The notes under the pieces: model-generated | Told to the model about the DNA's origin: nothing | Databases searched by the model: none | What the model saw: only the letters and a program-made list of their open reading frames with translations | Shown here: positions 7,166 through 59,578 of the stretch, in pieces | Layout of the letters: every line of letters starts with the position of its first letter | How positions within the stretch are numbered: the first letter of the stretch is position 1 | Program-made: the position numbers and the translations under genes | Assembly (NCBI GenBank): GCA_040754455.1 | Contig: JBFMCP010000002.1 | Location: 32,001-96,000 of the forward strand | Reading direction: 5' to 3' | Length of the DNA stretch: 64,000 nucleotides | Source of the DNA: Nitrospirota bacterium | Lineage (GTDB): Bacteria; Nitrospirota; Thermodesulfovibrionia; Thermodesulfovibrionales; Dissulfurispiraceae

Positions 7166-7184
7166 TCCAAGACAACCCAAAATC

Positions 7185-7216
7185 AAGGCGTGGTGGGAAA
7201 CTGCCACGCCTTTTTT
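7185..7216 (+). terminator. Intrinsic terminator of the acs operon
   Basis: AAGGCGTGG-loop-CCACGCCTT followed by a T-tract, just after the cooS stop. Confidence 0.85.
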
Positions 7217-7419
7217 GTTGCAGAACCCTTTTTAAACAGTCCCACCTTTTTTCAGATAACCATATGTCCCGTTGAGGATATTTAGAAAGATGGCGAAGTG
7301 CTTTGCTTCATCCATTTTGTATTACTTATCCTTTTGATTTATATAAAATAGAAAAAAAGTAACTGTTTTCAATCTTGAGCGATCTCTACATTATATATAC
7401 TTCCGCTTGCCCCCTGACC

Positions 7420-25152: not shown

Positions 25153-26373
25153 CTACCCTTCGTTAGGGGTGGCACTCTCTTTTTTCTTCATGTATTTCTT
25201 ATAGTCTAAGGTATCGATCGCGCGAGAGGAGCCGGGGACCCGGTGTGTGTATTTCATTGTTGTGGTGATACTCTCGTGGCCTGCTTGTTGCTGCACTTTA
25301 TGAGGGGGGACGCCGGAATCCATCAGGTAGCTTGTCCATGTGTGACGTAGGATGTGCAGGGTGATCCATCCGGGTAATTTGAGCTTTGCGATGAATTTCT
25401 TAAACGCTCGATAGAGCGAGTTGGGATCCATGAGCGGGGTATCATGCCTTCCGAAGAAATATTTTCCTTTACGGTTGGAGTTTTTCCGGATGACGCTCTC
25501 AATGTGCGGTACAAGATTGGGGTGTATTTCGATTTCACGGAACTTGTCGCCTTTGCCGTGGACGGTGATGAGGCCGCTGCGCAGGTCGACGTTATCGGGC
25601 TGTAGGTAGAGGAGCTCATACCGTCGCATGCCGGTGTAGATATAGGTGTAAATGATCTCTGAGAAATAACCGAAGGCGGCTTCTCCATTGTAGTTATCTA
25701 GGGCATGCATGATGATCTGCAGGTCGTCGGGATGGATCGCCCTGGGCGCGCGGGCGGGGACCTCTTTAAAGCGCTTGACGCCGGTCCGTGCGGGGTTTTC
25801 GCTGAGTATCTTTTTCCGCACAAGGTAATCGAGCATGATGCGCAGTGCGGTGATCTCTTTATTGACTGTGGATTTAGTGATAGGCGCACCTGTCTTCACG
25901 GCTTTTTGTGTGCGCCGGTGGGTGATATAGTCCTGGATGATCTGGGGGCTGTTCACTTGCCATGGGGCAATGCCTTTGTTTTTAAAATACTCTATGATCG
26001 GCTTTGTCTTATAGCTGTAGGAGGCTCGGGTGCTTTTGCTGCCTACACTATAGACGTGTTTGTCATATTCGTGTTGCAGTTTTTCCCATGTGATGCCGGC
26101 AGGATCTTCAAGATGCTTGCTCTGTGCGCGGCTGGTGAGCTTTGCTACTTCTTCGGCGTCTACTAATTTTTTATGGAGGAAGTAGACGAGCTCTTCATGG
26201 GTGAGTCGATGCTCGAGTGTGAGCACTTCGAGGCGTTTGGCATCCTGGTGGATAAGGATGGCTTTTTTTTCTTTTCGGGCATAGCGGTATTTTTCTTTTT
26301 GAGTGCCGTCGATGTAATAGAGGGTGTAGGTGATTTTGTATCCGTGCTGTTTATGTTTCCAGAGTGAGGCCAT
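25153..26373 (-). CDS. int: Phage integrase (tyrosine recombinase)
   Basis: Catalytic residues TGMRRYEL, HGKGDK, HILRH, GHESITTTMKY; next to the att site. Confidence 0.93.
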   Translation of the reverse strand: MASLWKHKQHGYKITYTLYYIDGTQKEKYRYARKEKKAILIHQDAKRLEVLTLEHRLTHEELVYFLHKKLVDAEEVAKLTSRAQSKHLEDPAGITWEKLQHEYDKHVYSVGSKSTRASYSYKTKPIIEYFKNKGIAPWQVNSPQIIQDYITHRRTQKAVKTGAPITKSTVNKEITALRIMLDYLVRKKILSENPARTGVKRFKEVPARAPRAIHPDDLQIIMHALDNYNGEAAFGYFSEIIYTYIYTGMRRYELLYLQPDNVDLRSGLITVHGKGDKFREIEIHPNLVPHIESVIRKNSNRKGKYFFGRHDTPLMDPNSLYRAFKKFIAKLKLPGWITLHILRHTWTSYLMDSGVPPHKVQQQAGHESITTTMKYTHRVPGSSRAIDTLDYKKYMKKKESATPNEG

Positions 26374-36987: not shown

Positions 36988-37488
36988 GTGGATATTTACG
37001 TTCCCGATCGGCAGGAACTTAATTCCATAAAGAAGCCCGCAAAAGTGAAGGGCAACAGATGGGGCTTCTGCGGCATCGCAGCCATGAGCGCGGCGATCGG
37101 GATTGCCCCATTAAAGATATGCGACTCAATTCCGGACTGGCCCGGATATACGCCCTCGAGGATGCTTATCGAAACGCTGGCGAAGTTCGGTTATGACTGC
37201 AGGAGGATCCTGATCCCGAAACTGGAGCAGCAAATGTGGCCGTTATATCAAGCAGGGCATCCCTCCAAGATAGCGATCGGCCGTATTTACTGGAGCGAAG
37301 GGAAATACGCCGATTCTCACTGGATTTGTTTTAACTGGAGCATGGAGAGTCTGGACGATCCTTATCCGGGACTATATGACAACACCTTCTACGATGGCTG
37401 GTGGGATACCAGGCATTTGAAATTCTATATCGAGAACAGGACGGCGAAGCTCAAGAGTTTGTATTTCGTCATAAAGGGGGAGAAATAA
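36988..37488 (+). CDS. Papain/C39-like cysteine peptidase candidate
   Basis: FCGIAAMS (Cys), SHWI (His), LYDN (Asp). Confidence 0.45.
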   Translation: MDIYVPDRQELNSIKKPAKVKGNRWGFCGIAAMSAAIGIAPLKICDSIPDWPGYTPSRMLIETLAKFGYDCRRILIPKLEQQMWPLYQAGHPSKIAIGRIYWSEGKYADSHWICFNWSMESLDDPYPGLYDNTFYDGWWDTRHLKFYIENRTAKLKSLYFVIKGEK

Positions 37489-37490
37489 TT

Positions 37491-38450
37491 ATGGGAACCA
37501 AATCGGTTCAGAAAAAAGGTTTGCTGTATCTATCTAAGGATGATCTTCTCACTCATCCGAAGAACCTGCGGCGTTTCTATCCGGAGTACCAGGTGCGCGA
37601 GATGGCTGAATCGATCCGCGCGGTCGGCGGAGTGCTGCAGGCGCTGCTAATCGTCCATAGCGGCCAGGCCGGGAAATACTTTGTCGTAGACGGCAATATG
37701 CGGCTTGCCGGCGCGAGGGCATTAGGGGATGAATGTCCTCCGCTCAAATGCGAAATAGTAGACAAGGGCAAGGCCGAGCAGCTGCTGGCCATGGTGGTGA
37801 CTGCGAAGTTTCGTTACGAACCCGATCCCATAAGCGAGGCGCTCCATTATAAACGCTTGATCGAAGAGGAGGGCTATAGCGCCCCCCGAATTTCCAGAGC
37901 AACGGGCACACATACCGCCACTATCTATACAAGACTTAAATTGCTCGAGCTCGATCCGGAGATACAGGAGCTGATAGGTAATCGCAAACTGCCTTCAGCC
38001 CAAGAGGCGATTAATGCCCTTCTCTCAATCTCTGATCCACGGGTGAGAGTGAAGCTTGCTCAGCGCCTGGCAAAGGATGAGCCGACTATAAAGGCTGTTG
38101 TCGCTGCCTGCGATCGGCTTCTTTCTCAGCTTGGAAAAGTCTCGGCTTCCAAAACGAAAGGATCTCCGGCCCTTGCACATCAAGAAACATCAGGTGCTGG
38201 CATCAACCGGAATTCGACGGTGGACATGGAGCACGTGCGCGATGCGGCCAAGGCAACCTGTAAAGAATGCGACATTCGACTCGGGCAGCTTTCGTCAGCC
38301 CCGGAGCCTGCATGGGCGCTGATCACGCACGCCGCTGAACAGACATGTGATGCCTGTAACATCCGGGAAGTAATCGGTGCCTGCAAAAACTGCCCGGCCG
38401 TCGACATTATGCGCAACCTTATTAATGCAATGACGGTAGGGCGCGCATGA
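37491..38450 (+). CDS. ParB/Srx-family protein with C-terminal Cys cluster
   Basis: HPKNLR...SIRAVGGVLQALL...VVDGNMRL, HTH, then CKEC/CDAC/CKNC. Confidence 0.8.
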   Translation: MGTKSVQKKGLLYLSKDDLLTHPKNLRRFYPEYQVREMAESIRAVGGVLQALLIVHSGQAGKYFVVDGNMRLAGARALGDECPPLKCEIVDKGKAEQLLAMVVTAKFRYEPDPISEALHYKRLIEEEGYSAPRISRATGTHTATIYTRLKLLELDPEIQELIGNRKLPSAQEAINALLSISDPRVRVKLAQRLAKDEPTIKAVVAACDRLLSQLGKVSASKTKGSPALAHQETSGAGINRNSTVDMEHVRDAAKATCKECDIRLGQLSSAPEPAWALITHAAEQTCDACNIREVIGACKNCPAVDIMRNLINAMTVGRA

Positions 38451-45509: not shown

Positions 45510-46523
45510 ATGTTTGAGAACTATCTAACAGGCTTCGCCGAGCAGGAGCGTGTTCTTCACGGGCTTGATGAAGCCTCAGTGTCGGCCTATCTTAAAAAAT
45601 TAAAAGAGTTCTTAGAATGGCTCGAAGGCAACGGGCATCCGGAGGAAATAGACATCCTCAAACAACGTGAGCTCATTGAGCAATATCTGCAGTGGTGCTT
45701 CCGTAGGGGGAATAAGAATACCACGCGAAACACCAAGCTCACGGCCATCACCAAATTTTATCGTTATCTCGTCTATATCAAGGCCCTTGATACTGATATC
45801 ACCGCCGACATCCCGCGACCGAAGACTCCACGTCGGTTTATGCAGGCGTACACCCGGGAGGACGTGCTCCGCCTTTTCCGGGCGATTCCGCTCCTTGACC
45901 CTAAGAAGGCAGAGAAAGCCCTCCGTGATGTCGTGATCATCATCCTGGGCGCTTTCTGCGGCTTCCGTATCGATGAGGCGCTTACCACCACGTTGAGCTC
46001 GATTGAGGACGATGGGAAATATATAAATATCCACGTTGAGGCAAAGTTCGGCAAGCATCGCTCCGTATATCTCTGGGCAGCGCCTTCTAACTTTGTGCGT
46101 TCTTATGTTGCGGTCCGCCTCGGGCATGGCGCGAAGAAAGATTCTCCGTTGCTGGTGTCATATAACAAGGGCGGAAAGCCCAAGGGTAATGCTCTCACGC
46201 ACGGAGCCATTGACCAGCTGATCAAGGGCCTGGCTGCGAATGCAGCCCTCCGGAAGCCGGAGAATCATTACCACATGTTCAGGGCAGGTCATATCAATGA
46301 CCTGCAGCGGATTAAAGGTTATACGCTCCCGGCGATCGCCAAGCGCGTCGGGCACGAGAATATAGAGACAACGTTTATTTACATCAAAGACCGGGACCGG
46401 ATTCACCATGAATACCCGAGCCTGGCCGCTTTCTGGAAAGATTTTGGTCCCCAATTGTGGGAGAAAGGAGATACTGATGCTAACGGCAGTAGTCATGTTG
46501 GAGGAGGAGAGATTGTCGAATAA
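45510..46523 (+). CDS. Second tyrosine recombinase (Xer-like)
   Basis: SAM-like N-domain; GFRIDE, KFGKHR, HMFR, GHENIETTFIY. Confidence 0.85.
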   Translation: MFENYLTGFAEQERVLHGLDEASVSAYLKKLKEFLEWLEGNGHPEEIDILKQRELIEQYLQWCFRRGNKNTTRNTKLTAITKFYRYLVYIKALDTDITADIPRPKTPRRFMQAYTREDVLRLFRAIPLLDPKKAEKALRDVVIIILGAFCGFRIDEALTTTLSSIEDDGKYINIHVEAKFGKHRSVYLWAAPSNFVRSYVAVRLGHGAKKDSPLLVSYNKGGKPKGNALTHGAIDQLIKGLAANAALRKPENHYHMFRAGHINDLQRIKGYTLPAIAKRVGHENIETTFIYIKDRDRIHHEYPSLAAFWKDFGPQLWEKGDTDANGSSHVGGGEIVE

Positions 46524-47007
46524 CAAAAGAACGGCCAACTGGGAACGTCTCATACCGCTTTTTCAGTCCTATGTCGATACGTTCGGGGCCGAGCTGGGGG
46601 GAATGGTCATTGATTACATCGCCCGAATGATCGGCGGGTACCGGATCTCTTTCCCGGAAAAGCTGACGCCGATCACCAGGCATTCGGAGAGCTGGGTTAT
46701 CCTCGCCCAGTTTTATGATGTCCTATGCTCGGACCTCAGCAAGATCGAGATGCCGAAGGCACCTGAAGAATTCCGTAACGGCTCCAGGCTGTCGGGGAAC
46801 CGGATAGGCCAGGTCGTTATGAAGGAGATGTTTCGTAGACTCAAGGGCCATCGGATTTCATTTGTCAGGCTTGAAGAGATGCATCGCATCGAGCGTGACG
46901 AGAAGATCCGCAAAGAGCGGAAGGAGCATGGCACCAGCGTCACCGTCCTCGCCGAGCGCAGCGGCCTGGATGAAGTGACGATATGGAGAATATTGAGGGA
47001 GGAATAA
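46513..47007 (+). CDS. Mor/C-like late transcription activator
   Basis: GGYRISFP, a repeat KGHRISFV, then RDEKIR...VLAERSGLDEVTIWRIL HTH; TTG start after GGAGGAG. Confidence 0.7.
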   Translation: MSNNKRTANWERLIPLFQSYVDTFGAELGGMVIDYIARMIGGYRISFPEKLTPITRHSESWVILAQFYDVLCSDLSKIEMPKAPEEFRNGSRLSGNRIGQVVMKEMFRRLKGHRISFVRLEEMHRIERDEKIRKERKEHGTSVTVLAERSGLDEVTIWRILREE

Positions 47008-47479: not shown

Positions 47480-47596
47480 ATGAATTACGGCCTGGTCTAT
47501 AAGTCTAAGAGGAAGCGAAACAGTGGAGTTCTTTGGGCTCTGGCGTTGGCTGTGATAGTTATAGGGATTATTTCTCTCTGGGGTCTATGGAGATGA
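47480..47596 (+). CDS. 38-aa single-TM peptide
   Basis: MNYGLVYKSKRKRNSGVLWALALAVIVIGIISLWGLWR*; TGATG coupling to the Lar-like gene. Confidence 0.45.
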   Translation: MNYGLVYKSKRKRNSGVLWALALAVIVIGIISLWGLWR

Positions 47597-47808
47597 TGGT
47601 TAAATTGTTGCCATGCCCTTTTTGTGGCAACGAAGCGAAGCTGTACGAAGACTCGGAATATGCTAGCGAAGACCTCAGAAAATATTCTGTCTCCTGTACA
47701 GGATGCTCCTGCTCCTTGGGGGCCCTCGGCGATGACCATGACGACAATCCTGAATATTTGTTCTCTTCTAAGGAAGAGGCAATTAAGGCTTGGAATACTC
47801 GTGTATAA
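47596..47808 (+). CDS. Lar-family restriction alleviation protein
   Basis: LLPCPFCG...CTGC...KEEAIKAWNTR signature. Confidence 0.8.
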   Translation: MVKLLPCPFCGNEAKLYEDSEYASEDLRKYSVSCTGCSCSLGALGDDHDDNPEYLFSSKEEAIKAWNTRV

Positions 47809-48350: not shown

Positions 48351-48362
48351 CATTTGGAGATC

Positions 48363-49661
48363 ATGTCATTCATCGGATCGATTAACGACAGGCTTCGACA
48401 GTTTTTCTGGACCCACGCCGGCAGGCTCGACGGCCGGCGCTGCTATATCGGCTGCTCGGGCAATTTCACCATTGAGCAGATCATATCGCGCCGCTGCAGC
48501 AACGTAGAGATCTACAGCAATGACGTGTCTCTTTATTCAAGCGCCCTCGGCCATATGCTGGCCGGCAAGTCCTTTGACATGGAAATAACGAACCCCGAGC
48601 TCTCCTGGGCGAATGAATACATCCGGAGGGGCGCTGCAGAGGGAGTCGGCACGCTCCTGCTCTTGCTCGAAATGCTGAAGTACGAGAAGCGCAAGAGCGC
48701 CTTTGCCGAGCGCATGTGGCAGTCGTATCTGATCAATTTCGAGGGGCTGCTCGACAAGACCCTGCAGCGGATCCAGAAGGCGTCTGAGCATATTCGTATC
48801 AAAGAATACACCATGGTCGACGTGTTCGATTACTACCCACGCCCTGACGGCGTGAGCATCGGCTTCCTGCCGACCTATGTGGGCGGGTACGAGAAGCTTT
48901 TCGCCCGCCTCGAGGAGTCGGTGCAGTGGCAGAGCCCACGCTACGAGCTGCTTACCACAGAGCGCCGTGAGGCCAGCGTCCAGAAAATGCTTGACGGTGA
49001 TTACATCCTCTATGATGACCGTGAGCGCGATCTCCCCTGCATCGCCCGCGTGGATCTCTTTGGCCGCAAGACGGTCTACATTTACAGCAACCTCGATGTC
49101 CGCCAGGGCGTGTTCCGGAAAAAGATAAACGAGAAGGTCCCGCGCTACGAAATCCTCATGCCGGATGAAGAGATCGCTCATGATGCCGAGGTCAAGCTCC
49201 TGCAGGTGGACCTTCCGACGATCAACCACTACCGCAATATGTTCCTGAGCAAGAAGATACAGCCCGGCTCCGGGGATCCCTGCTTCCTTGCTTTTGCCGG
49301 CGACAAGGTGTTCGGCTTCCTGATCTTTCAGACCTATTCGAAAAAGGGCGGTCCGTCCGATGAGATCTATCTGCTATCAGATTTCGTAGTGCCGAGTACT
49401 CGGTATCGCCGACTTGCGAAACTGCTGCTTCTGGCCGTCAAGTGCAGAGAGGTCAAGCAGCTCCTCGATGAAAAGCAGATACGGGAATTCGGGAGCATCC
49501 TGACTACCGCTTTTACCGATAAACCGGTGAGCATGAAATACCGCGGCGTCTTCGAGCTCGCAAAGCGCGGCGAGGGCTTTCTGAATTACCGGGCCGAATT
49601 CGACAACACATCCCTGAAGGAGGTCATACAGCTATGGATGAAAAAATACGAGAAACAGTAG
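48363..49661 (+). CDS. Putative DNA-modification protein: degenerate adenine-MTase-like N-domain plus GNAT/Mom-like C-domain
   Basis: FIGS, YIGCSGNF, YSNDVS, FLPTY; C-terminal YLLSDF...RRLAKLL...TTAFTDKPVSMKYRG. Confidence 0.65.
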   Translation: MSFIGSINDRLRQFFWTHAGRLDGRRCYIGCSGNFTIEQIISRRCSNVEIYSNDVSLYSSALGHMLAGKSFDMEITNPELSWANEYIRRGAAEGVGTLLLLLEMLKYEKRKSAFAERMWQSYLINFEGLLDKTLQRIQKASEHIRIKEYTMVDVFDYYPRPDGVSIGFLPTYVGGYEKLFARLEESVQWQSPRYELLTTERREASVQKMLDGDYILYDDRERDLPCIARVDLFGRKTVYIYSNLDVRQGVFRKKINEKVPRYEILMPDEEIAHDAEVKLLQVDLPTINHYRNMFLSKKIQPGSGDPCFLAFAGDKVFGFLIFQTYSKKGGPSDEIYLLSDFVVPSTRYRRLAKLLLLAVKCREVKQLLDEKQIREFGSILTTAFTDKPVSMKYRGVFELAKRGEGFLNYRAEFDNTSLKEVIQLWMKKYEKQ

Positions 49662-50428
49662 ACCAGCTTAATTCATTCCTGGGCGATATGCCGTACAAGG
49701 TCGATATTGTGGATCCACGTGAGCTAACACTGCTCGAAAAGAACGCCCGATACATGACGCATGAAATGTTCCAAAACCTCGTGACCAACATCAAGAGAGA
49801 TGGTGGGCTGTCCTCCCTGCCACTGGTCTATTATGAAAAGGACGGCCGGAAGATCGTCCTGAGCGGTAATCACCGTGTCCAGGCGGCCGTCGCTGCAGAG
49901 GTCCCGTGGATCCTTATCCTCAGGATCGACAGGGAGCTCTCCCGGCAAGAGCAGGTTGCCATTCAGCTGTCGCATAACGCTATCGAGGGGAAGGATGATC
50001 CTGTTGTCCTGAAGGGCCTGTGGGGGGAGATCCTCGATATCGACCTGAAGCTTTACGCAGGCCTCGACAGCGAAACACTGAAGGAGCTTGAAAAGATGCA
50101 GTTCGCTACCATCTCAGAGGCAGCGCCCGATTTTAAGCAGATGGTCATGATGTTCCTTCCCGAGGAGCTGGAGGAATTAAAGCAGTTGATCGAGGGTATT
50201 GATCACTTCTTTTCCGGTGATGTGAACTACGTTGCCGCACGGGAGCACTATGAGCATGTGTTTAAAATGCTCGTCGAGATAAAGGAAAAGTTCAATATCG
50301 TGAACAACCCGACTGCCTTTATGAAGATGGTCGAAATGGCAAAGCTGTACATGGAAGGGTTGCCGCCGGCAGAGGTCAAAAAAGATGCCAAAGCCGCAGA
50401 CGCTACTTCAACAAAATCAAAAGCTTAG
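49634..50428 (+). CDS. ParB N-terminal domain protein associated with the modification gene
   Basis: EKNARYM...NIKRDG...VLSGNHRV...LSHNAIEG. Confidence 0.8.
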   Translation: MDEKIRETVDQLNSFLGDMPYKVDIVDPRELTLLEKNARYMTHEMFQNLVTNIKRDGGLSSLPLVYYEKDGRKIVLSGNHRVQAAVAAEVPWILILRIDRELSRQEQVAIQLSHNAIEGKDDPVVLKGLWGEILDIDLKLYAGLDSETLKELEKMQFATISEAAPDFKQMVMMFLPEELEELKQLIEGIDHFFSGDVNYVAAREHYEHVFKMLVEIKEKFNIVNNPTAFMKMVEMAKLYMEGLPPAEVKKDAKAADATSTKSKA

Positions 50429-50786: not shown

Positions 50787-51035
50787 ATGCGATATGTGAC
50801 GGTGGGATTGACGGCAGAGCAAGCGCATTTTGTATCAGACATGCAGAGGCATTATGAGCGGATGGCGGGAGAGGCGATTCCGCTGCACCGCGCAATAGAG
50901 CGCATTATTGAATGCGCCATGCTGGAAAGAAAGGAGGTTAATGGAGAGGAAGAAAATTGGAAGGGCACGGCGGCCACCGTGCCCCACGTAAGCACCCCTA
51001 ACCCAAACACGAGAAAGGAGCTAACACTATGGTAG
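50787..51035 (+). CDS. Small ribbon-helix-helix-like regulator
   Basis: AAGGAGG RBS; N-terminal alternating beta strand MRYVTVGLT followed by two helices. Confidence 0.45.
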   Translation: MRYVTVGLTAEQAHFVSDMQRHYERMAGEAIPLHRAIERIIECAMLERKEVNGEEENWKGTAATVPHVSTPNPNTRKELTLW

Positions 51036-53383
51036 CAACGGCAGCAGTCGAAGTCAACGCAAAGAGGATCGCATCATTGAGGAAAGTAGCAGACGGAATG
51101 ACAAAGCAGATCGAGGAGAAGTTGAACTCGGCCACCAGCAAGCAGCGCCCCACCCGGCGGCGCGCAAAGATAGCCGACAGTCTGGAGCAGGAAGGCCGGA
51201 CCCTGCAAAAGGTCCAGCACGCGCTCAATGCGATCGCTGACGGCCTTGAGAGCGGCACGCTCCCCGAGAGCCTTGCGAAGCTCTCTAACCGGGTGCAAGT
51301 GGACGACCTCATCAGATTGAGCCGTCCATCTGATCGCCTGGAGGCCCTCGGCATCGATTTCGAGCGGGCCAAGGCCGATATCATGGAGATCATTAAAGAC
51401 GCTGTCCCGGTCGTCAGCCTGCAGGAAGCGAAGATCCGGAAGATGGAGCGCGACCTGATCGGCACCAAGATCCCCGGTTATTTCCCTACTCCCCGTGAGA
51501 TAGTTGAAGAGATGCTCCAGTCGGCGGATATCGCGCCCGGCATGAAGGTCCTGGAGCCGAGCGCCGGCAAGGGCAACATCGCGGATGTCATCAGAGAGCT
51601 TTATCCTGAGGTGGAGCTGTCGGTTGTCGAGCGCAATTGGACACTTTGCGAGATACTGAAAGAAAAAGAGCACAATCTTGTCGGTTATGATTTCTTGCTG
51701 CACGAGGGCAGGTATGACCGCATCATCATGAACCCGCCGTTCGAGAACGGGCAGGATATGGACCACGTGCGCCATGCCTATTCGCACCTGAATCCGGGCG
51801 GCATTGTAGTATCCATCGTATGCGAGGGCGCCTTTTGTCGGACCGATAAGAAGGCCTGCGATTTTAAAGACTGGATGACCGAAATCGGCGGTACATCCTT
51901 CAGTCTGCCGAGCGGATCCTTCAGCATGGGAGAGCGGTCCACGGGAGTCAATACAAGAATCGTCGTCCTCTACAAGGAAGAGTCGGCAGCGGAAGAAGCT
52001 GCGACCGAGACGGAAGAAGACATGGTGGCTTTTGGAGAAGGGTCTGAACAGCCGGCGGCTGAGGTCGTTCAAACTCCCGATGCGGAGCCGGAGCTAGCTA
52101 TCTGCCGGACATGCAAAGGCAGGGGAGAGATCGAGAATATCAAATGCGCGGACTGCAAAGGCACCGGATGGGCTGTCGTAGAAAAGGTCATTCACGAGGA
52201 CTGCAATGGACATGGCTGTGATGCCTGCCATGACGGTTGGATCGCAAGACAGGTGAATGCCGAGCCCAACGGCGTTCTTTCGCCGGACCAGACGCAGAAA
52301 GACCTGAACCTGAAGCATCCAGCAGGAGACCGAAAGCGCGGCACGCTGACCCTTATTCGCAATGAGTTCGAGGAATGTCTAAAGGCCGCTCTCGACATCG
52401 CCGAGCGGAGAAACACCATGCCGATTCTCTCGCATATCCACATCAAGGCTGAGGAGGGCGCCTGCCGCATCGAGGCCACCGATATTGAAAACTCATGGAG
52501 CAAGGTGATTGTCGCCAATCCGGTCTACGGCGCCGTCGATATGTGCGTCCCGCTCCATCTTCTCGCCAAAGAGGTCAGCGCGCTCCACGCAGACATCAAG
52601 ACCGTAGAGCTGTCGTTCAAGGGCAATACGGTAAAAGTCAACGGCAGGTGCGATATCTTCACTCTTCGCGGTGATGAATTCCCGGCCCTCAAAATTATCG
52701 AGGGCACCGAAGTTGCGATGAAGGGACTTCCGGCGAAGATCAAAAGAGTACTCGTAGCAGCAGGCGAGAGTGATACCCGGTATGTGCTCAACGGTGTCTA
52801 TATTGATTTGCAGAAAGGGCGCATCGTGGCGACCGACGGCCACCGGCTGCACATTGATGATATCGAGAAATCAGAGATGCCGAGTGTCATTCTTTCACGC
52901 AAGACAGCCGGGCTGATCGCCAAGCATGGCGCTGATACGCTCGTTTTCGGTGATGGGCATGTATCCTGCGCACTTGCCGGAGGTGTTCTGGTATCGAGGC
53001 TCCACGAAGGCACCTATCCGAACTACGAGAATGTAATCCCCAAAGAGCTCCCGATCAAGGCGACCTTCAGCGGGGCGGAGATGCTCAAGGTCCTTGAGGG
53101 AGCGGTCCCTATAGCGGCATCGAAGAGCAACGCGGTCAAGCTCTCGTTCAACGGGCAGATCGACGTGCATTCCACGAATCCCGATATTGGGCAATATCAC
53201 TGGTACGTGCCCTGCGAAAAAACAGGGGACGATATCTCTATAGCGATCAATGCACAGTATCTTATCGACTCCATCCGGTCATACACGACCAAGGAGAATG
53301 ATACTGTTATAATGGAGATCAACGAGCAGCTGACCCCGGTGCTCATCAACAGCAGGGCTGTCGTAATGCCCATGAGGTTATAG
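51029..53383 (+). CDS. DNA adenine methyltransferase - zinc finger - DnaN (beta sliding clamp) fusion
   Basis: YFPTP, LEPSAGKG, MNPPF; CRTCKGRG...CADCKGTG; clamp motifs NTMPILS, EATD, DEFP, DTRYVLNGV, VATDGHRL, SRLHEGTYPNY, terminal VVMPMRL. Confidence 0.88.
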   Translation: MVATAAVEVNAKRIASLRKVADGMTKQIEEKLNSATSKQRPTRRRAKIADSLEQEGRTLQKVQHALNAIADGLESGTLPESLAKLSNRVQVDDLIRLSRPSDRLEALGIDFERAKADIMEIIKDAVPVVSLQEAKIRKMERDLIGTKIPGYFPTPREIVEEMLQSADIAPGMKVLEPSAGKGNIADVIRELYPEVELSVVERNWTLCEILKEKEHNLVGYDFLLHEGRYDRIIMNPPFENGQDMDHVRHAYSHLNPGGIVVSIVCEGAFCRTDKKACDFKDWMTEIGGTSFSLPSGSFSMGERSTGVNTRIVVLYKEESAAEEAATETEEDMVAFGEGSEQPAAEVVQTPDAEPELAICRTCKGRGEIENIKCADCKGTGWAVVEKVIHEDCNGHGCDACHDGWIARQVNAEPNGVLSPDQTQKDLNLKHPAGDRKRGTLTLIRNEFEECLKAALDIAERRNTMPILSHIHIKAEEGACRIEATDIENSWSKVIVANPVYGAVDMCVPLHLLAKEVSALHADIKTVELSFKGNTVKVNGRCDIFTLRGDEFPALKIIEGTEVAMKGLPAKIKRVLVAAGESDTRYVLNGVYIDLQKGRIVATDGHRLHIDDIEKSEMPSVILSRKTAGLIAKHGADTLVFGDGHVSCALAGGVLVSRLHEGTYPNYENVIPKELPIKATFSGAEMLKVLEGAVPIAASKSNAVKLSFNGQIDVHSTNPDIGQYHWYVPCEKTGDDISIAINAQYLIDSIRSYTTKENDTVIMEINEQLTPVLINSRAVVMPMRL

Positions 53384-53384
53384 G

Positions 53385-53816
53385 ATGATCTATTCAATCG
53401 GCTATCAGAAAAGGAAGCTCTCCGAGATAGTCAGTGTGATGGAGGAAAAGGACATCGACCTGCTGGTCGATGTCCGCTCCGTCCCCTACTCGCGGAAGCC
53501 GGAGTTTAACCGCAACCGCCTGCAGGAGGCCCTCGGCTCCCGTTATGAGTGGATGGGCGAGGTCCTGGGCGGCAAAAAGGGGCCTGCAAAGGAGATCGGC
53601 ATCAAAAAACTGCTCTTCCTTCACGGCCAGGGCAGGCGCCTGCTCCTGATGTGCATGGAGCATCACCCCTGCGACTGCCACCGGCTCTATGATATCTCCC
53701 GGCGACTCGCAAAGAGGGGCGTTGAGGTAGTGCACCTTTTCGACGGCCATGAGCAGACGACCGACGAACTATCAGAGGAGGCATGCAATGAACGCAAAAA
53801 AGATAGAAATAGATAG
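53385..53816 (+). CDS. DUF488-family protein
   Basis: IYSIGY, LVDVRSVPYSR, LGG, LMCME...CHR. Confidence 0.82.
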   Translation: MIYSIGYQKRKLSEIVSVMEEKDIDLLVDVRSVPYSRKPEFNRNRLQEALGSRYEWMGEVLGGKKGPAKEIGIKKLLFLHGQGRRLLLMCMEHHPCDCHRLYDISRRLAKRGVEVVHLFDGHEQTTDELSEEACNERKKDRNR

Positions 53817-54696
53817 TGAGGGCAAAGCAGCGACACATCTGCTCTTCCCCAATCCGGACCAGCCGCGGAAGATCTTCAAGCAAGGTCCTCTCGAGGAGCT
53901 GGCCCTCTCCATCCGGGAGAAGGGGCTTATCGAACCGATTGTCATCACCCCGTACGGCAAGATCATTGCCGGCGAGCGGAGATGGCGGGCGAGCATGATG
54001 GAGGGCACCATCCAGACCGAGCGCGGTCCGATACAGATAACTCCTGTGGAACGGGTGCCGGTGATCACCAAAAACGCTAGCGAACGGGAGATCGCCGAGC
54101 TCGCACTTCTGGAGAACTGGCAGCGCGAAGACCTCACCATTATGGAAGAAGCGATGGAGTTTAAGAAGCGGCTTGCTGAGGGGTGGACCAAAGAGGACCT
54201 TGCAAGGATCCTCGGCCTTAAACAGACCTGGCGCATCGATGAGCGCTTGAGCCTCCTGAACCTCACCCCTGAATACCAGCAGATGGTAGCCGAAGGGAAG
54301 ATCGGCAACTCCGAGGCCTTCGAGATGAGTCGTGTTACCCCTGCCAAGCAGGGTGTGGTGCTGAAAAAGATCGTTTCCGGGGAGCTGAATACCTACAACA
54401 AGCTCAGGGCCTTTGTGGACGGAATGATCGCACTGGAGAGCCAGGGCAACATCTTCGATCTCAATTCCCTTTCGGAGGAAGAGCAGTCGTCGATCAGGAG
54501 CTTCGATGGCATGCTCGCCGGCATTGAGCGGTTCATCGGCAAGTTCAGAGATGAGGAGCGGATCGCGCTTCTCAAAAAAGCAGGCTTCCGCGCGGACATC
54601 AAGTCCGAGCGCCTCGACCTCATCATCAAGGAGCTGCAGGGGATACGGAAAATTATCCTTGCCGGCAAGGGGATCAAAGACGCCATGGCCGCTTAA
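53788..54696 (+). CDS. ParB/RepB/Spo0J family protein
   Basis: PNPDQPRK.F, LIEPIV, IIAGERRWRA, ENWQREDL. Confidence 0.9.
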   Translation: MNAKKIEIDSEGKAATHLLFPNPDQPRKIFKQGPLEELALSIREKGLIEPIVITPYGKIIAGERRWRASMMEGTIQTERGPIQITPVERVPVITKNASEREIAELALLENWQREDLTIMEEAMEFKKRLAEGWTKEDLARILGLKQTWRIDERLSLLNLTPEYQQMVAEGKIGNSEAFEMSRVTPAKQGVVLKKIVSGELNTYNKLRAFVDGMIALESQGNIFDLNSLSEEEQSSIRSFDGMLAGIERFIGKFRDEERIALLKKAGFRADIKSERLDLIIKELQGIRKIILAGKGIKDAMAA

Positions 54697-54763: not shown

Positions 54764-55669
54764 TTGGCAGACAACAAAGACGAAATTCTGGCGCAACTGA
54801 AGAAGAAACTCACGCTTATCAGGGTGAGCATCAGCAACGCCGTCAGACATCTCAACGAAGGCAGAGTCGTTCCTGCGAGCACGATCGACGATCTATATAC
54901 CCAGGAGACACAAATCCTCAAACAGATCGAAAGGCTCGAAAAGGAAGAGGATACCCCTCCACCTCCATCGGAATCCTCGGGCGAAGCCGGCGCCGAAGAG
55001 GAAGAGTACGGCATCCCGAAAGAGCTCCGCATTATGCGCCGTCCCTACACCATGACCGAAGAGGCGCGCCAGCAGCGGCAGAATGCGGCGAAGAGTCCCG
55101 CGAAAGCCGATGCCATGAAGGGGAACCGCAACGCCTGGAAGCACGGGCAGTATGCCGAGGGATTGGTGCGGAGCGTATTTCCTCCCTGCAAAACTACCTG
55201 TCGTCATTTTAAAAAATGTGAGCACGTTGCGAACGGCGAGACAGAGCCCGGCGAGATATGTCTTGACAATGCGCAGCTCATAAAGAATCTCCAGGCTGTT
55301 GAGAAAGCCATGAGAGACGGACAGCTTGGGGATTTGAAAGACCTTGCGGCTGTACAGATCGCCGGCGGGATAGAGGTTATCCAGCGATTGATTGCCGATA
55401 TCCTGACGGACGGAACGCTGGTAAAGTCGCTGATCTTCGGCAAGGATGGACAGCAGCTCGGTTACAAGGTTATGAATCACCCGTCGCTTTTGCCGCTGTG
55501 GAAAGGCATGGAGGTCCTGGGGATCACGCCCACAAACTTCATGATCACGCCGCAGATCGTGAAGAAGTTTGATACCGAAGAAAAGGTGGCTAATACTCTT
55601 GGCGCGGCAATGGGCCGCGCGGCGGCTGCTGCCCAGCGTGCGCGCGAGAAGAAGCCACAGCAGCAGTGA
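54764..55669 (+). CDS. Probable terminase small subunit
   Basis: KGNRNAWKHG motif, NHP motif, Cys cluster; GTGA-coupled to the large subunit. Confidence 0.7.
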   Translation: MADNKDEILAQLKKKLTLIRVSISNAVRHLNEGRVVPASTIDDLYTQETQILKQIERLEKEEDTPPPPSESSGEAGAEEEEYGIPKELRIMRRPYTMTEEARQQRQNAAKSPAKADAMKGNRNAWKHGQYAEGLVRSVFPPCKTTCRHFKKCEHVANGETEPGEICLDNAQLIKNLQAVEKAMRDGQLGDLKDLAAVQIAGGIEVIQRLIADILTDGTLVKSLIFGKDGQQLGYKVMNHPSLLPLWKGMEVLGITPTNFMITPQIVKKFDTEEKVANTLGAAMGRAAAAAQRAREKKPQQQ

Positions 55670-57504
55670 AGCCCTTCATTGATACGGTTGAGCCTGTAAC
55701 GATGGATGACCTCCGCAAGGCGATCCTTGTTCCCCGTGAAGATTTCGAGAAGTGGCTGGAGCTGCATAATTGGACTTACCACCAACTGGCCCGAAAAGAA
55801 TACCCCGAGCCCTACGAAGACCTGCAGCAGTTCCAGCTTGCCTGCTATTGCTCATCACCGCTCCTATGGATACCTGCTTTTTTAAGGGAGCCTGAAGACC
55901 CCGATCACCAGGACTCTTATACGCTTTGGGACTATCAGGAGGACTCTATTGCATATCCCGGCCACACGATACACAAGTGCGGCGCCGAGGTGGGCAAGAC
56001 CCGCGAGATCGTCGCGTACGCGCTTTATAAAGCCTTTACCGTGCAGAACGGCTCCGGGCTGATAGGCGCGCCGCAGCAGACGCACCTGGACGAAATCATC
56101 GAGGCGATGCTCGAACAGCTCGACTTCAACGAGGACCTGAAGCCTTCGCTTGTGGAGCACAAGAAACATCCGCATCACCGGTTCAGGTTCGATACCAGGT
56201 TCAAACTCTATTTCAGGCCGGCCGGACATGACGGCGAGGCATACAGAGGAATACACGTGCGGACATTCGCCATCAAGGATGAAGCGGCGAAACTGGATCA
56301 TAAAAAACAGTGGTCGGAGTTTTTCCGTGCGGTCAAGCCCGGTTGTGTGGTGAAGCTCTACTCGGTGCCCGACGGCCGGCGCGATACGGAATTCTACCGG
56401 TTGAGCAAACTTGCCGAGGGCGAGAAAGACACGGAGATCGAAGCGTTCAAAGAGGCATCGAACCATATTAAGGAGATCAAATTCCAGCTCTTTAAATGGC
56501 CGAAGATGTTGATGCCTTCGCCGTACTGGTCGCCTGAGAGAAAGAAGTTCTATATAGATCTTTACGGCGGAGAGGATTCGCCGGAGTATAAGCACAATGT
56601 CTTGGGTGAGGACGGGGATCCTGCCAACTCTGTTTTCCCATGGCAACAGTTCAGGTACTGCATTAAAGAGATCCCTGAGTACCGCGCGTTGAAGATCATG
56701 GTCGATTCAGCCAATGGAGAAGTGAGCGCCTATGGGTACCGATGCGAGTATGTGGCCGGAGACAGCGGGCCGGTCCCCAAGGCTGTTACCATCCTCGACA
56801 CGACTTACCGCCTGGCCGGCTTTTTCGATTATGTGGAGGGCGAGGAGTCCGAGTTCAGGAAGCTCATCAAGAGCTTTTTCGATGAGACACGCGAGGGCGC
56901 CAAGGAGGGTGGCGGCGACTTCGGCTATACCGGGGATCCCACGGAGCTGATTGTGCATAAGAGGATCGGCAAGAAGGACAGGTGGGTGGCCCGGCTCCAG
57001 CTGCGGCAAGTCACCTACGACCAGCAGTGCCAAGCGCTCGATGCGATCGACGATATCTTCGAACCGAAAGAGTCCCTTGGATGGGGGACCGACTTCGGCA
57101 ACGCCGGCTCCGCGGTTGCTCACGATCTGCAGGGGCTCCCACAGTATCGGGACAAAGACTATGACGACCGGCTTCGGGGATTCATGTTCGAGTCGACAAC
57201 GGACAATGTAGATGAAGAGGGGACCCCTATCATTGACGCCAAGACAGGGAAGCCGGCGAAGATCACGCTCAAAGAACTGGCGACCGATATCCTTGTAAAG
57301 AAGATGCAGCGCATGGAGCTGGAGTATCCGCCCGACCCTGACATCGTTGTCTCTTACACCGGGCATACCTGCACCTACGGCAGCAAGCACAGGATCTACT
57401 CGAAGAGTAACGACCATCTTATTGACGCAGATAGAGCAAGAGTGCTTGCAAAACTTTTTATGAATGAAACCGGCCGCGACGACGTGTTTGCAAGCGGAAA
57501 TTGA
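55666..57504 (+). CDS. Terminase large subunit
   Basis: GAEVGKT Walker A, IKDEAA Walker B, GGDFG and DHLIDA nuclease motifs. Confidence 0.88.
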   Translation: MKPFIDTVEPVTMDDLRKAILVPREDFEKWLELHNWTYHQLARKEYPEPYEDLQQFQLACYCSSPLLWIPAFLREPEDPDHQDSYTLWDYQEDSIAYPGHTIHKCGAEVGKTREIVAYALYKAFTVQNGSGLIGAPQQTHLDEIIEAMLEQLDFNEDLKPSLVEHKKHPHHRFRFDTRFKLYFRPAGHDGEAYRGIHVRTFAIKDEAAKLDHKKQWSEFFRAVKPGCVVKLYSVPDGRRDTEFYRLSKLAEGEKDTEIEAFKEASNHIKEIKFQLFKWPKMLMPSPYWSPERKKFYIDLYGGEDSPEYKHNVLGEDGDPANSVFPWQQFRYCIKEIPEYRALKIMVDSANGEVSAYGYRCEYVAGDSGPVPKAVTILDTTYRLAGFFDYVEGEESEFRKLIKSFFDETREGAKEGGGDFGYTGDPTELIVHKRIGKKDRWVARLQLRQVTYDQQCQALDAIDDIFEPKESLGWGTDFGNAGSAVAHDLQGLPQYRDKDYDDRLRGFMFESTTDNVDEEGTPIIDAKTGKPAKITLKELATDILVKKMQRMELEYPPDPDIVVSYTGHTCTYGSKHRIYSKSNDHLIDADRARVLAKLFMNETGRDDVFASGN

Positions 57505-57517
57505 TAAGGAGCGAGCT

Positions 57518-59578
57518 ATGAGATGGAATATTTTTTCACGTCTGTTTTCAAAAGCCCCGTCGGGCTCTTTCGACATGCAGCTCAGGCCCCGGCAGGCGCA
57601 GGGACCCTATACGCAGAAGTTCGAGGAGTTTTTCACCCGCAAGGTTGAGGGCGCGTTTTACGAGTTCCTCCGGAAGACCATGCCGGTCATCGATGGAGCG
57701 ATCAACCGGCTCACTGCACTGGACGGGTATCCGGACATCGAGGGGGACAATGAAGCGTTGGTGGAGGAGATCAAGGACTGGTGGTACAACGTGCCGGTCA
57801 ACCAGTTGCAGAAGGGAGTGCATGCCTATCAGCAGGCACTGACGAGCGAAGCATGGGAGCAGGGGTTTGGCTTCGGCGAGCCGGTCTATGATAAGAAACG
57901 CTCCGACATCATCGGGCTGAACACCGCCGACTCGCTCACCTTCACGTTCAAACAGAAAGATGACGGCACATTCGAGGTCCTGCAAAAGGGCTACGGCGAC
58001 AGCACGCCGAGACCTCTCGACCTTTCACGGCTCGATTTCTTCAGCGTCAACTGCGAGAACGGGGACCCTCGCGGCGTTCCCCTGATGAGATCCTGCGAGA
58101 TAGTGAGCAGGACCCTCGCCACTATATTCAACTCGTTGCAGAATGTATGGGAGCGGTTCGGTGACCCTTCCTTTTCTCTGGTCTACAAATCCCTCACCAA
58201 AGATCAGATCGATCTCGAAGCCAGGCGTCAGAAGCTCTCTACAGACCTGTCCAATGCGGTCAGATCCAAGCGCGAGGGGAAGTCGGTCGATTTCGTCTCC
58301 GCTATTCATAAGGACGCCGAGATCAAACTGGAGATCATCGGCGCCGTCGGCCAGGTGCTCGATGTGGAAATGCCGATGAGGGCTCTCCTGGAGCAGATCG
58401 TCGCAAAAACAGGATTGCCCCCCTGGATGTTCGGGCTCCGCTGGTCCACGACCCAGGGGCTCAGTGATTCTGAAGCGGAGATGATCCTGGCCGATGTCAA
58501 GACACGCCAGGCTGCGAAGACGCCCCTCCTTTACCGGCTGGTGCGCGAGCTGCTCCTCCTGCGCGGCAGGACCTGGAAGCCCGGTGACTGGACGATCACA
58601 TGGAAAACGGTGAACCTCCATGACCTTGTGAAGCAGGCGCAGGCCCGGTTCCTGAACGGCCAGGCAGATATGTACTACATGCAGAATGCCGAGCGCGCCG
58701 GCATCGAGATCAGCCGCGAGGACCTCGCCCTCGGAAAAGAAGTAAGAGCAAAGGGCGTTATCATCCTCACCGGCAAAAAAGAGACAGGCAGCTGCAGCTG
58801 CGGTGCACATCACGGCCTTAAAGAGCTCCAGCGCACGCAGCCGTGGCCCGAGCTGGACAAAGTAGAGAGCGATTACGAAGGCGCCCTCAAGGCGCGGTGG
58901 GCTGAGCTCCGCGACGTTGTATTTACCATCCTGAAGCTGCCGTACGAGGGCAAATCAGTAAAAGGCCCCGAGGACGTTCCCCCGATCGAAGCATTCTCAT
59001 TCTCCGATGAACAGCGTACGGCGGTGATGAGGGCCTATAAGGACTGGTACGGCTCCTTTGATATCGATGATCCGTCTTCCCCTGTCCGCTGGTACTACGG
59101 GCAGAGCTATTCCCTGGGGCTCATACAGGCGGCGAAGATGATCGGCAAAGAGCGCCCTATCCTCGACATCATCAAAAACAGAGAGATTTATGATGAGCTG
59201 TGCAGGAGCGGTTTCTCTTTGTTGAAGGACAATGCGACCAAAGCGATTGTCGAGAGGATCCTGCCTGAGATGGAAGCCCAGATGCTCGCCGGCACCAACC
59301 CACGCCATGTGGCTACGCGCCTCGAGAAACTCTTCGGCAATGCGAACAGCGACTGGGAGCGTCTGGCGCGGTCCGAGATGAGCATGGCGGCCGAGGAAGC
59401 GAAGGTCGATGAATGGAAAGAGTGGGATGTTGATGTGAAGAACGCTGTGATCCCGGTGAAGGATACGCACCCGCGCTGCAGGTGTTCGAATACCATCAAA
59501 GAGAAAGACGGCAAATTCTTCATTGCTTTTACCCCTGCTCCTGATGCATGTGCAATCTGTGTAGCCTTGGCCCAGTAA
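57518..59578 (+). CDS. Portal protein fused to MuF/gp7-like minor head domain
   Basis: Position after TerL; PRGVPL...RFGDP portal motifs; C-terminal RLARSE, HPRCRC and CAIC. Confidence 0.78.
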   Translation: MRWNIFSRLFSKAPSGSFDMQLRPRQAQGPYTQKFEEFFTRKVEGAFYEFLRKTMPVIDGAINRLTALDGYPDIEGDNEALVEEIKDWWYNVPVNQLQKGVHAYQQALTSEAWEQGFGFGEPVYDKKRSDIIGLNTADSLTFTFKQKDDGTFEVLQKGYGDSTPRPLDLSRLDFFSVNCENGDPRGVPLMRSCEIVSRTLATIFNSLQNVWERFGDPSFSLVYKSLTKDQIDLEARRQKLSTDLSNAVRSKREGKSVDFVSAIHKDAEIKLEIIGAVGQVLDVEMPMRALLEQIVAKTGLPPWMFGLRWSTTQGLSDSEAEMILADVKTRQAAKTPLLYRLVRELLLLRGRTWKPGDWTITWKTVNLHDLVKQAQARFLNGQADMYYMQNAERAGIEISREDLALGKEVRAKGVIILTGKKETGSCSCGAHHGLKELQRTQPWPELDKVESDYEGALKARWAELRDVVFTILKLPYEGKSVKGPEDVPPIEAFSFSDEQRTAVMRAYKDWYGSFDIDDPSSPVRWYYGQSYSLGLIQAAKMIGKERPILDIIKNREIYDELCRSGFSLLKDNATKAIVERILPEMEAQMLAGTNPRHVATRLEKLFGNANSDWERLARSEMSMAAEEAKVDEWKEWDVDVKNAVIPVKDTHPRCRCSNTIKEKDGKFFIAFTPAPDACAICVALAQ

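Follow-up and report, generated by a model that had tools for sequence, protein, structure and literature searches.

What would a temperate phage gain by joining a DNA methyltransferase to a complete β sliding clamp in one polypeptide? The question is raised by a gene in the late block of a prophage, within a 64,000-nt stretch of DNA from a Nitrospirota bacterium (GenBank assembly GCA_040754455.1, contig JBFMCP010000002.1, positions 32,001 to 96,000 of the forward strand; this whole stretch is hereafter the window, and its own numbering is used). Here, we analyse the encoded fusion protein by domain searches, structure prediction, clamp phylogeny and surveys of the relatives of either half. 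The methylase module appears to lack a target-recognition domain, the clamp keeps its peptide-binding pocket, and a clamp-binding peptide is often found at the C-terminus of methylase relatives that are not fused. From these comparisons and models we consider it probable that the protein is a clamp-tethered orphan methylase, with which a temperate Nitrospirota phage marks its new DNA against restriction.

The fusion gene occupies positions 51029..53383 of the + strand and runs from an ATG start through 784 amino acids to a stop codon; the listing of open reading frames (ORFs) gives exactly one frame here, in agreement with the uninterrupted 784-residue ORF described in an earlier note made from the sequence without database searches. 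A ribosome-binding site (AAGGAG) lies 8 nt 5′ of the ATG, the start codon is overlapped by the stop codon of an upstream 82-amino-acid ORF (ATGGTAG) and a single base separates the fusion stop from the ATG of a DUF488 gene. The protein is on record from two contigs. Because a relative on another contig, P0002 (715 amino acids), has the same architecture, with 55% identity and 100% of its length matched, the comparison indicates that the fusion is a real gene and not an assembly artefact. An opposite-strand ORF of 332 amino acids (51074..52072, − strand) lies inside the methylase-coding part and is taken as a shadow frame.

The N-terminal half consists of a helical N-domain (51029..51463, residues 1–145) and an amino-methyltransferase catalytic core (51464..51976, residues 146–316), both on the + strand, as are all parts of the gene described below. 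AlphaFold models the first 330 residues confidently (predicted local distance difference test (pLDDT) mostly >90, with a dip to about 80 at residues 261–270) as two parts, a helical domain and, after it, a Rossmann methyltransferase core. The N-domain, with pLDDT >90, is all helix to about residue 142, matching the helical domain that the earlier note had described. The N-domain and core are conserved as one module, the N-domain being shared by 29 of 31 aligned relatives; P0086 and P0087 have an N-terminus that differs from those of the other aligned methylases. The core contains YFPTP (residues 151–155; FPTP at 51482–51493), motif I LEPSAGKG (51551–51574, residues 175–182) and motif IV NPPF (51731–51742, residues 235–238). 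These are the three signatures from which an amino-methyltransferase had been proposed, and all three fall in invariant columns: across a 32-sequence family alignment, FxTP, motif I, the acidic residue of motif II and NPPF do not vary.

Database comparisons of the core are consistent with these motifs. It matches MTS and Methyltransf_23 in Pfam and the orphan and type II methyltransferase models of PADLOC. Its nearest solved folds in Foldseek are type I HsdM subunits, lmo1582 and M.TaqI (E 7e-10 to 5e-9), the last superposing with a root mean square deviation of 3.7 Å over about 190 columns at 21% identity, and a sequence search of the N-terminal half against the PDB returned no match. Motif I precedes motif IV (N/D-P-P-Y/F), the order found in the N6-adenine methyltransferases that we take to be the gamma type. 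We found no target-recognition domain: the core stops near residue 316 and a disordered linker follows. Pfam and NCBIfam scans also revealed no HsdS-like specificity gene nearby. We predict that this half is an orphan N6-adenine-type DNA methyltransferase.

The two halves are joined by an acidic linker (51977..52093, residues 317–355), a Cys-rich insert (52094..52240, residues 356–404) and a second linker (52241..52333, residues 405–435, pLDDT <50). The acidic linker, also described in the earlier note, has 10 glutamates within residues 317–350, and its pLDDT drops from about 65 to <50, lying below 50 from residue 338; residues 338–435, including the Cys-rich insert, are predicted to be disordered save for a few isolated residues. 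The insert contains CxxCxGxG twice (52103–52126, from residue 359, and 52145–52168, from residue 373), followed by C392, C397 and C400. Of the DnaJ-like zinc finger claimed earlier, the motif therefore stands, in two copies, but the family assignment does not: we rejected a DnaJ-type zinc finger because there are two repeats instead of four and the match to the Pfam DnaJ_CXXCXGXG family (PF00684) reaches 18.2 bits where 32.7 are required. On the motif, we regard the insert as a putative zinc finger. A match to RtpA/anti-TRAP (E 2.7e-5, NCBIfam) is likewise under cut-off, and P0002, the closest fused relative, is without the insert.

The remainder of the protein (52334..53380, residues 436–784) is a complete β sliding clamp, identified by Pfam, TIGR00663 and PDB sequence matches. 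The N-terminal, central and C-terminal clamp domains (PF00712, PF02767 and PF02768) match residues 440–554, 564–665 and 668–776, all above cut-off, and the score for the dnaN model TIGR00663, 160.3 bits, exceeds the required 137.65 (NCBIfam). This half aligns with solved clamps over its full extent (PDB, E 1.7e-28) and ends in a canonical, free VVMPMRL C-terminus, which confirms the DnaN identified in the earlier note. Identity of the fused clamp to E. coli β is 24%, rising to about 33% for the chromosomal clamps of Nitrospirota. At the peptide-binding pocket (subsites I and II), for which we used the 18 residues listed in an extract of PMC11139829, 16 of the 18 are the same as in E. coli β, the differences being R246N and V344L.

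Modelling of the homodimer, a check that the earlier note had proposed, yielded scores of 0.70, 0.67 and 0.71, against a best score of 0.00 in three controls, although these values may echo the solved clamp dimers. In the model, domain I of each molecule contacts domain III of the other, with pLDDT 88–89, so that two fusion clamps are predicted to form a closed head-to-tail ring; clamp dimers are common among solved structures, which the prediction possibly reflects. C541, P694 and W725 align with positions that we take, from E. coli β, to be dimer-interface residues. They fall inside the modelled interface, and the corresponding residues of two chromosomal clamps from Nitrospirota are F, V and D. 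From its conserved features and the model, the fused clamp looks functional.

The join is not confined to this prophage. A search of 1.84 billion representatives recovered 31,029 relatives of either half, and among 81 gathered DnaN-domain proteins eight have a methylase N-terminal to DnaN (P0001, P0002, P0003, P0086, P0087, P0161, P0194, which is partial, and P0214). In a tree of 52 clamp domains, the clamps of mobile elements separate from chromosomal ones with a support of 95 (SH-like approximate likelihood ratio test), and fused forms occupy three or more places within the mobile clade, beside unfused clamps, while the long branches of P0161 and P0214 fall outside this clade. The methylase of P0003 comes from another family, N6_Mtase. 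The scattered tree positions, this N6_Mtase and the different N-termini of P0086 and P0087 therefore suggest that the methylase–clamp join arose, or was remodelled, several times. P0214 is a 5194-amino-acid polyvalent protein, with the methylase module at about residues 1850–2056 and a DnaN-like region at about residues 2931–3217. In the isolated Tunturiibacter phage Tunturi_4, a clamp gene lies directly upstream of a methylase gene.

Relatives of the methylase that carry no clamp of their own provide a second line of evidence. We scored tails of 8–120 residues beyond the core end, in proteins with the methylase as last domain, against 500 shuffles. A clamp-binding pentapeptide is present in 3 of the 36 tails of the first protein set (shuffled mean 0.16; none of 500 shuffles reaches 3); in one of these proteins, P0053, a Pro/Glu/Lys-rich linker is followed by ...KAKQLSLF at the C-terminus. 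A second set was gathered by a search with the standalone methylase P0180, which listed 120 relatives, 119 of them new; the core end could be placed in 80 of these, and 20 had tails of 8–120 residues. Eight of the 20 tails contain the motif (six QLSLF, one QLSLW and one QMTLF), each at the C-terminus or within four residues of it, against a shuffled mean of 0.21, with none of 500 shuffles reaching 8. The motif is present in at least five different tail contexts. QLSLF is the consensus β-clamp-binding motif (PMC12867686 and PMC11139829, extracts). In four of the proteins (P0250, P0264, P0285 and P0310) a second conserved motif, Q(V/I)(Q/E)TLFG or PTLF, stands upstream of the terminal QLSLF and may be a second clamp contact.

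In these unfused proteins, the linker and clamp-binding peptide occupy the same place as the linker and clamp of the 784-amino-acid protein. Because standalone relatives so often end in QLSLF, the methylase family looks like a β-clamp client, of which the fusion would be the covalent version. Whether this extends to a large family of mobile-element orphan adenine methylases, each a β-clamp client through a QLSLF tail or through a clamp of its own, we judge to be about an even bet.

In the mechanism that we propose, the fusion gene would be expressed together with the packaging genes, and the C-terminal clamps of two molecules would close into a head-to-tail ring, which the host clamp loader would place on phage DNA at primer ends or nicks. 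Two methylase heads would hang from the N-termini of the ring on flexible linkers of about 120 residues, modifying DNA while the ring slides or stays behind the fork, and the clamp would provide the grip on DNA that a methylase without a target-recognition domain is missing. The outcome would be well-methylated progeny DNA that resists restriction. The earlier note had imagined much the same, a clamp-held methylase protecting new phage DNA, and the repeated fusions, the QLSLF tails, and the kept pocket together with the modelled ring support this idea. We infer the activity on DNA, the loading by the host loader, the timing and the anti-restriction purpose, as well as the ‘processive’ and ‘replication-coupled’ character of the methylation.

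Several observations weigh against a clamp-tethered, phage-protecting methylase. The RNA methyltransferases TrmN, DIMT1 and METTL5 score similarly to the DNA enzymes in Foldseek, and for this reason DNA as the methylase substrate rests on context. No host clamp or clamp loader gene is present within the window. Such fusions are infrequent, amounting to 3 of 52 extended clamps and, in another search, 3 of 85 matches, and none of 345 phage records covers at least 80% of the protein. The eight motif-bearing tails of the second set are not independent, three of them, P0250, P0264 and P0285, being clearly kin with a shared upstream Q..TLF motif, and P0180 was chosen as query for its own motif tail, so that the count overstates independence; the clamp tree is a quick maximum-likelihood version. 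Moreover, 35 of 56 extended mobile-clade clamps have Lys-rich N-tails (at least 15% Lys) versus 8 that have a methylase and, because most extended clamps bear such tails, the basic role of the mobile clamp clade may be other than methylase carriage. Finally, a ParB gene lies directly after the mobile clamp, or one gene beyond it, in all three readable loci (the window, L005 and L054). The methylase-tether model leaves this adjacency unexplained, and the clade may have a ParB-linked role.

The genomic setting bears on both the proposed mechanism and its alternatives. Up to about 24 kb, the window is host chromosome, with CO dehydrogenase/acetyl-CoA synthase genes, a multihaem cytochrome, hisG and scpA; one of the host proteins falls into the same 90%-identity cluster as a protein ascribed to a Nitrospirota metagenome-assembled genome. 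The prophage begins at about 25.1 kb. Its genes run in the order integrase, CI-like repressor, CII, ParB-like gene, 1046-amino-acid primase-helicase, second integrase, Mor-family activator, Lar, DAM-like/GNAT-like fusion and ParB-nuclease-like gene, then the block containing the methylase–clamp fusion, and after it the large terminase, the portal and a weak match to a major head protein. The scan of prophage ORFs revealed no DNA polymerase. On the + strand, the fusion gene and its closely spaced neighbours continue into the terminase genes, and no terminator-like site was found on this strand between 45550 and 57436; a promoter scan was uninformative (5 sites against 8.6 expected).

Within this block, the 82-amino-acid ORF (50787..51035, + strand, from the ORF listing) precedes the fusion gene. 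It has no Pfam, PHROG, NCBIfam or PADLOC match, and its single-sequence model (pLDDT 60) has an extended N-terminus and helices at residues 10–29 and 33–46. DUF488 (53385..53816, + strand; Pfam E 1.6e-14) and ParB (53749..54696, + strand; ParB N-terminal domain plus helix-turn-helix (HTH) domain in Pfam and NCBIfam) follow it. Of the neighbours named in the earlier note, DUF488 and ParB are thus borne out by Pfam, but the ribbon-helix-helix gene has no family match and a low-confidence model that is compatible with this fold; the 82-amino-acid product is possibly a ribbon-helix-helix protein. Among the candidate defence families of PADLOC, the DUF488 protein also matches PDC-M45B (E 2.7e-22) and PDC-M19A; it has no informative solved relative, and among the matches listed for its name there was no functional paper. 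The packaging genes start with a 301-amino-acid protein in the small-terminase position (54764..55669), followed by the large terminase (55666..57504, PHROGs phrog_2) and the portal (57464..59578, PHROGs phrog_30703), all on the + strand.

The prophage has other features of note. A Lar restriction-alleviation homologue is encoded at 47533..47808 (+ strand; Pfam E 4.3e-13) and several anti-restriction candidates are therefore stacked in the element. Just 3′ of Mor and Lar, a 435-amino-acid protein (48354..49661, + strand) combines a Phage DNA Adenine Methylase-like domain 1 with a Phage GNAT-like domain (E 2.8e-56 and 3.5e-41) and is a second candidate DNA-modification enzyme. Three ParB-superfamily genes are present on the + strand (37401..38450, 49634..50428 and 53749..54696), two of them encoding ParB_N and HTH domains and the third being ParB/nuclease-like (phrog_7405); the prophage scans revealed no ParA. 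Tyrosine recombinase genes lie at 25153..26373 (− strand) and, between the replication genes and Mor, at 45510..46523 (+ strand). The prophage may be a composite element.

The presence of a primase-helicase in a prophage in which no polymerase was found favours one alternative, in which the clamp is a phage processivity factor that recruits host Pol III or outnumbers the host clamps, with the methylase as a passenger. The conserved pocket would suit this role, and many phages carry an unfused DnaN that is annotated as a processivity factor (phrog_947; Rhizobium phages). The fusion gene, however, is grouped with the late packaging genes; the primase gene lies about 7 kb upstream of it, with the second integrase and Mor in between. 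Nor was a convincing clamp-binding motif found in the prophage's own proteins: a strict pattern matched none of them, Mor included, and a loose pattern matched once, in the primase, across 33 ORFs and 9,643 residues, a number that chance alone would account for. A processivity factor would also leave the QLSLF tails of unfused methylases unexplained. We consider this reading unlikely.

The variety of the mobile clamp clade suggests another alternative. A scan of related loci from the seven closest sequences yielded mostly Nitrospirota chromosomal dnaN, and only L004, L005 and L054 were of mobile type. In two loci, the window and L004 (1427..2041, after a P0003-like clamp), DUF488 follows the clamp. 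The clamp, ParB and, in some loci, DUF488 might thus form a mobile module for DNA maintenance, silencing or the marking of DNA for packaging, to which the methylase is one add-on. The ParB adjacency, the recurrence of DUF488 and the variable N-terminal additions, with methylases far outnumbered by Lys-rich tails, fit such a module. Yet it is built on three loci, no ParA accompanies it, and the literature searched describes no ParB–DnaN mechanism; it is also compatible with the clamp-tethered methylase. We rate this reading as quite improbable.

Clamps of this clade vary in further ways. Lys/Ala/Pro-rich N-tails of 40–120 residues occur on P0004, P0005, P0028/P0223, P0030, P0135 and others, and on the L005 clamp (5578..7032); in L054 the HU gene beside the clamp is also N-terminally extended. 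Many mobile-clade clamps have an insertion of 85–155 residues, most of 100–120, between matched clamp halves (P0016, P0017, P0021, P0030, P0031, P0033, P0157, P0220, P0225 and others, and the L054 clamp at 5818..7386). Small proteins with weak MgsA_C likeness are encoded near the clamp–ParB pair in L005 (9015..9647) and L054 (4681..5247).

Two further alternatives are very improbable. The protein could poison or hijack the replisome by forming mixed dimers with the host clamp, as the earlier note had also suggested, or by soaking up clamp-binding proteins, and the conserved pocket could indeed titrate host partners in the way that phage Mu C turns toxic through clamp binding (PMC12867686, extract), but C541, P694 and W725 are clade-specific at the aligned interface positions and a pure poison would have no need of strictly conserved methylase motifs. 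The clamp could instead be a late-transcription cofactor, as the T4 gp45 clamp is and as the host clamp is for Mu C, acting with the Mor/C-family late transcription activator encoded 4 kb upstream (46408..47007, + strand; Pfam Mor E 2.4e-6; phrog_836), and clamp-binding motifs are found across the Mor/C family (PMC12867686, extract), but this Mor homologue has none by two patterns, no Mor-family match accompanies the L005 and L054 clamps among the ORFs scanned, and the methylase is left unexplained.

A clamp-tethered methylase is also in keeping with the other company that the methylase module keeps. The module is fused to ParB in P0039 (Pfam), where the methylase is N-terminal to ParB, and in P0072, P0075 and P0080 (precomputed Pfam), and to ArdC in P0006. 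It also occurs within giant polyvalent proteins of Vibrio and Pseudomonas phage isolates (E 1e-70 to 1e-88), and in the leading region of IncF plasmids a 187-amino-acid methylase-module protein, which also has NPPF, is encoded between a DUF3560 gene and ssb/parB/psiB. In most of these settings, newly entered or newly made DNA needs protection, and the theme that appears to recur is that of a minimal methylase attached to a partner able to travel along DNA.

Comparison with known systems places the fusion between several of them. With chromosomal DnaN (TIGR00663; E. coli 1mmi/2pol) it shares the three domains, the pocket, the MPMRL terminus and the predicted head-to-tail dimer. Unlike chromosomal DnaN, it has a 435-amino-acid N-terminal extension, belongs to the separate mobile clade with its own residues at the aligned interface positions, and is encoded in a prophage late block, outside the dnaA-dnaN-recF setting. 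The methylases of polyvalent proteins likewise combine a helical N-domain, an adenine methylase without a recognition domain and a DNA-tracking module (PMC5512222, extract). They are thought to protect incoming DNA and have been proposed to ride an SF2 ATPase (Iyer et al. 2017, PMC5512222, extract). Their partner is this SF2/SNF2 ATPase rather than a clamp, and the words ‘clamp’ and ‘DnaN’ are absent from that paper. The P1 methylase-helicase DarB was rejected as a close relative (BLASTP E 0.13), the fusion having no helicase domain.

Canonical ParB is itself a CTP-gated DNA sliding clamp; ParB clamps load through parS and CTP, whereas β clamps load through a clamp loader and a primer end. Fusions of the ParB fold to methylases of the Methyltransf_23 type, the same Pfam type as here, are enriched in prophages (PMC12704722, extract). 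The 784-amino-acid protein is not one of them: it contains no ParB domain, and ParB is encoded separately, two genes downstream. M.EcoGIX and M.BceJIII are promiscuous plasmid adenine methylases that act on single-stranded DNA and protect entering DNA, in a manner that depends on replication and polymerase association (PMC7736820, extract). We rejected membership of their family, which is described there as beta-class with DPPY; the fusion has NPPF, with motif I first.

Full-text searches, which leave most subscription journals uncovered, returned no published methylase–clamp fusion or clamp-binding methylase of bacteria or phages, in agreement with the statement of the earlier note that it knew of no described example, although unnamed fused relatives exist in sequence databases. 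A 2024 review of the β clamp (PMC11139829) contains no word starting with ‘methyl’, and a table in a 2022 clamp review has a DNMT1 row for PCNA with the bacterial column empty (PMC9690074, extract). If the proposed clamp clients are real, DNA methylases would join the list of β-clamp partners as a new partner class, replication-coupled methylation of the DNMT1–PCNA type would be a general means by which mobile DNA in bacteria counters restriction, and it would be explained how minimal methylases that lack a recognition domain reach and cover new DNA fast enough to outrun restriction. As a tool, a self-clamping methylase could also mark replicated DNA.

The bacterial parallel to DNMT1–PCNA is one of function. 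There, too, a ring clamp keeps a DNA methyltransferase on freshly replicated DNA, and DNMT1 contacts PCNA by means of a short motif, as the QLSLF-tailed relatives seem to contact the β clamp (PMC9690074, extract). DNMT1, however, is a cytosine-C5 enzyme that is linked non-covalently to a trimeric clamp and serves epigenetic maintenance, whereas in the prophage protein the link is covalent, and there is no sequence relationship between the two. We therefore regard DNMT1–PCNA as a functional analogue of what is, on present evidence, probably a methylase tethered to a DNA-tracking module.

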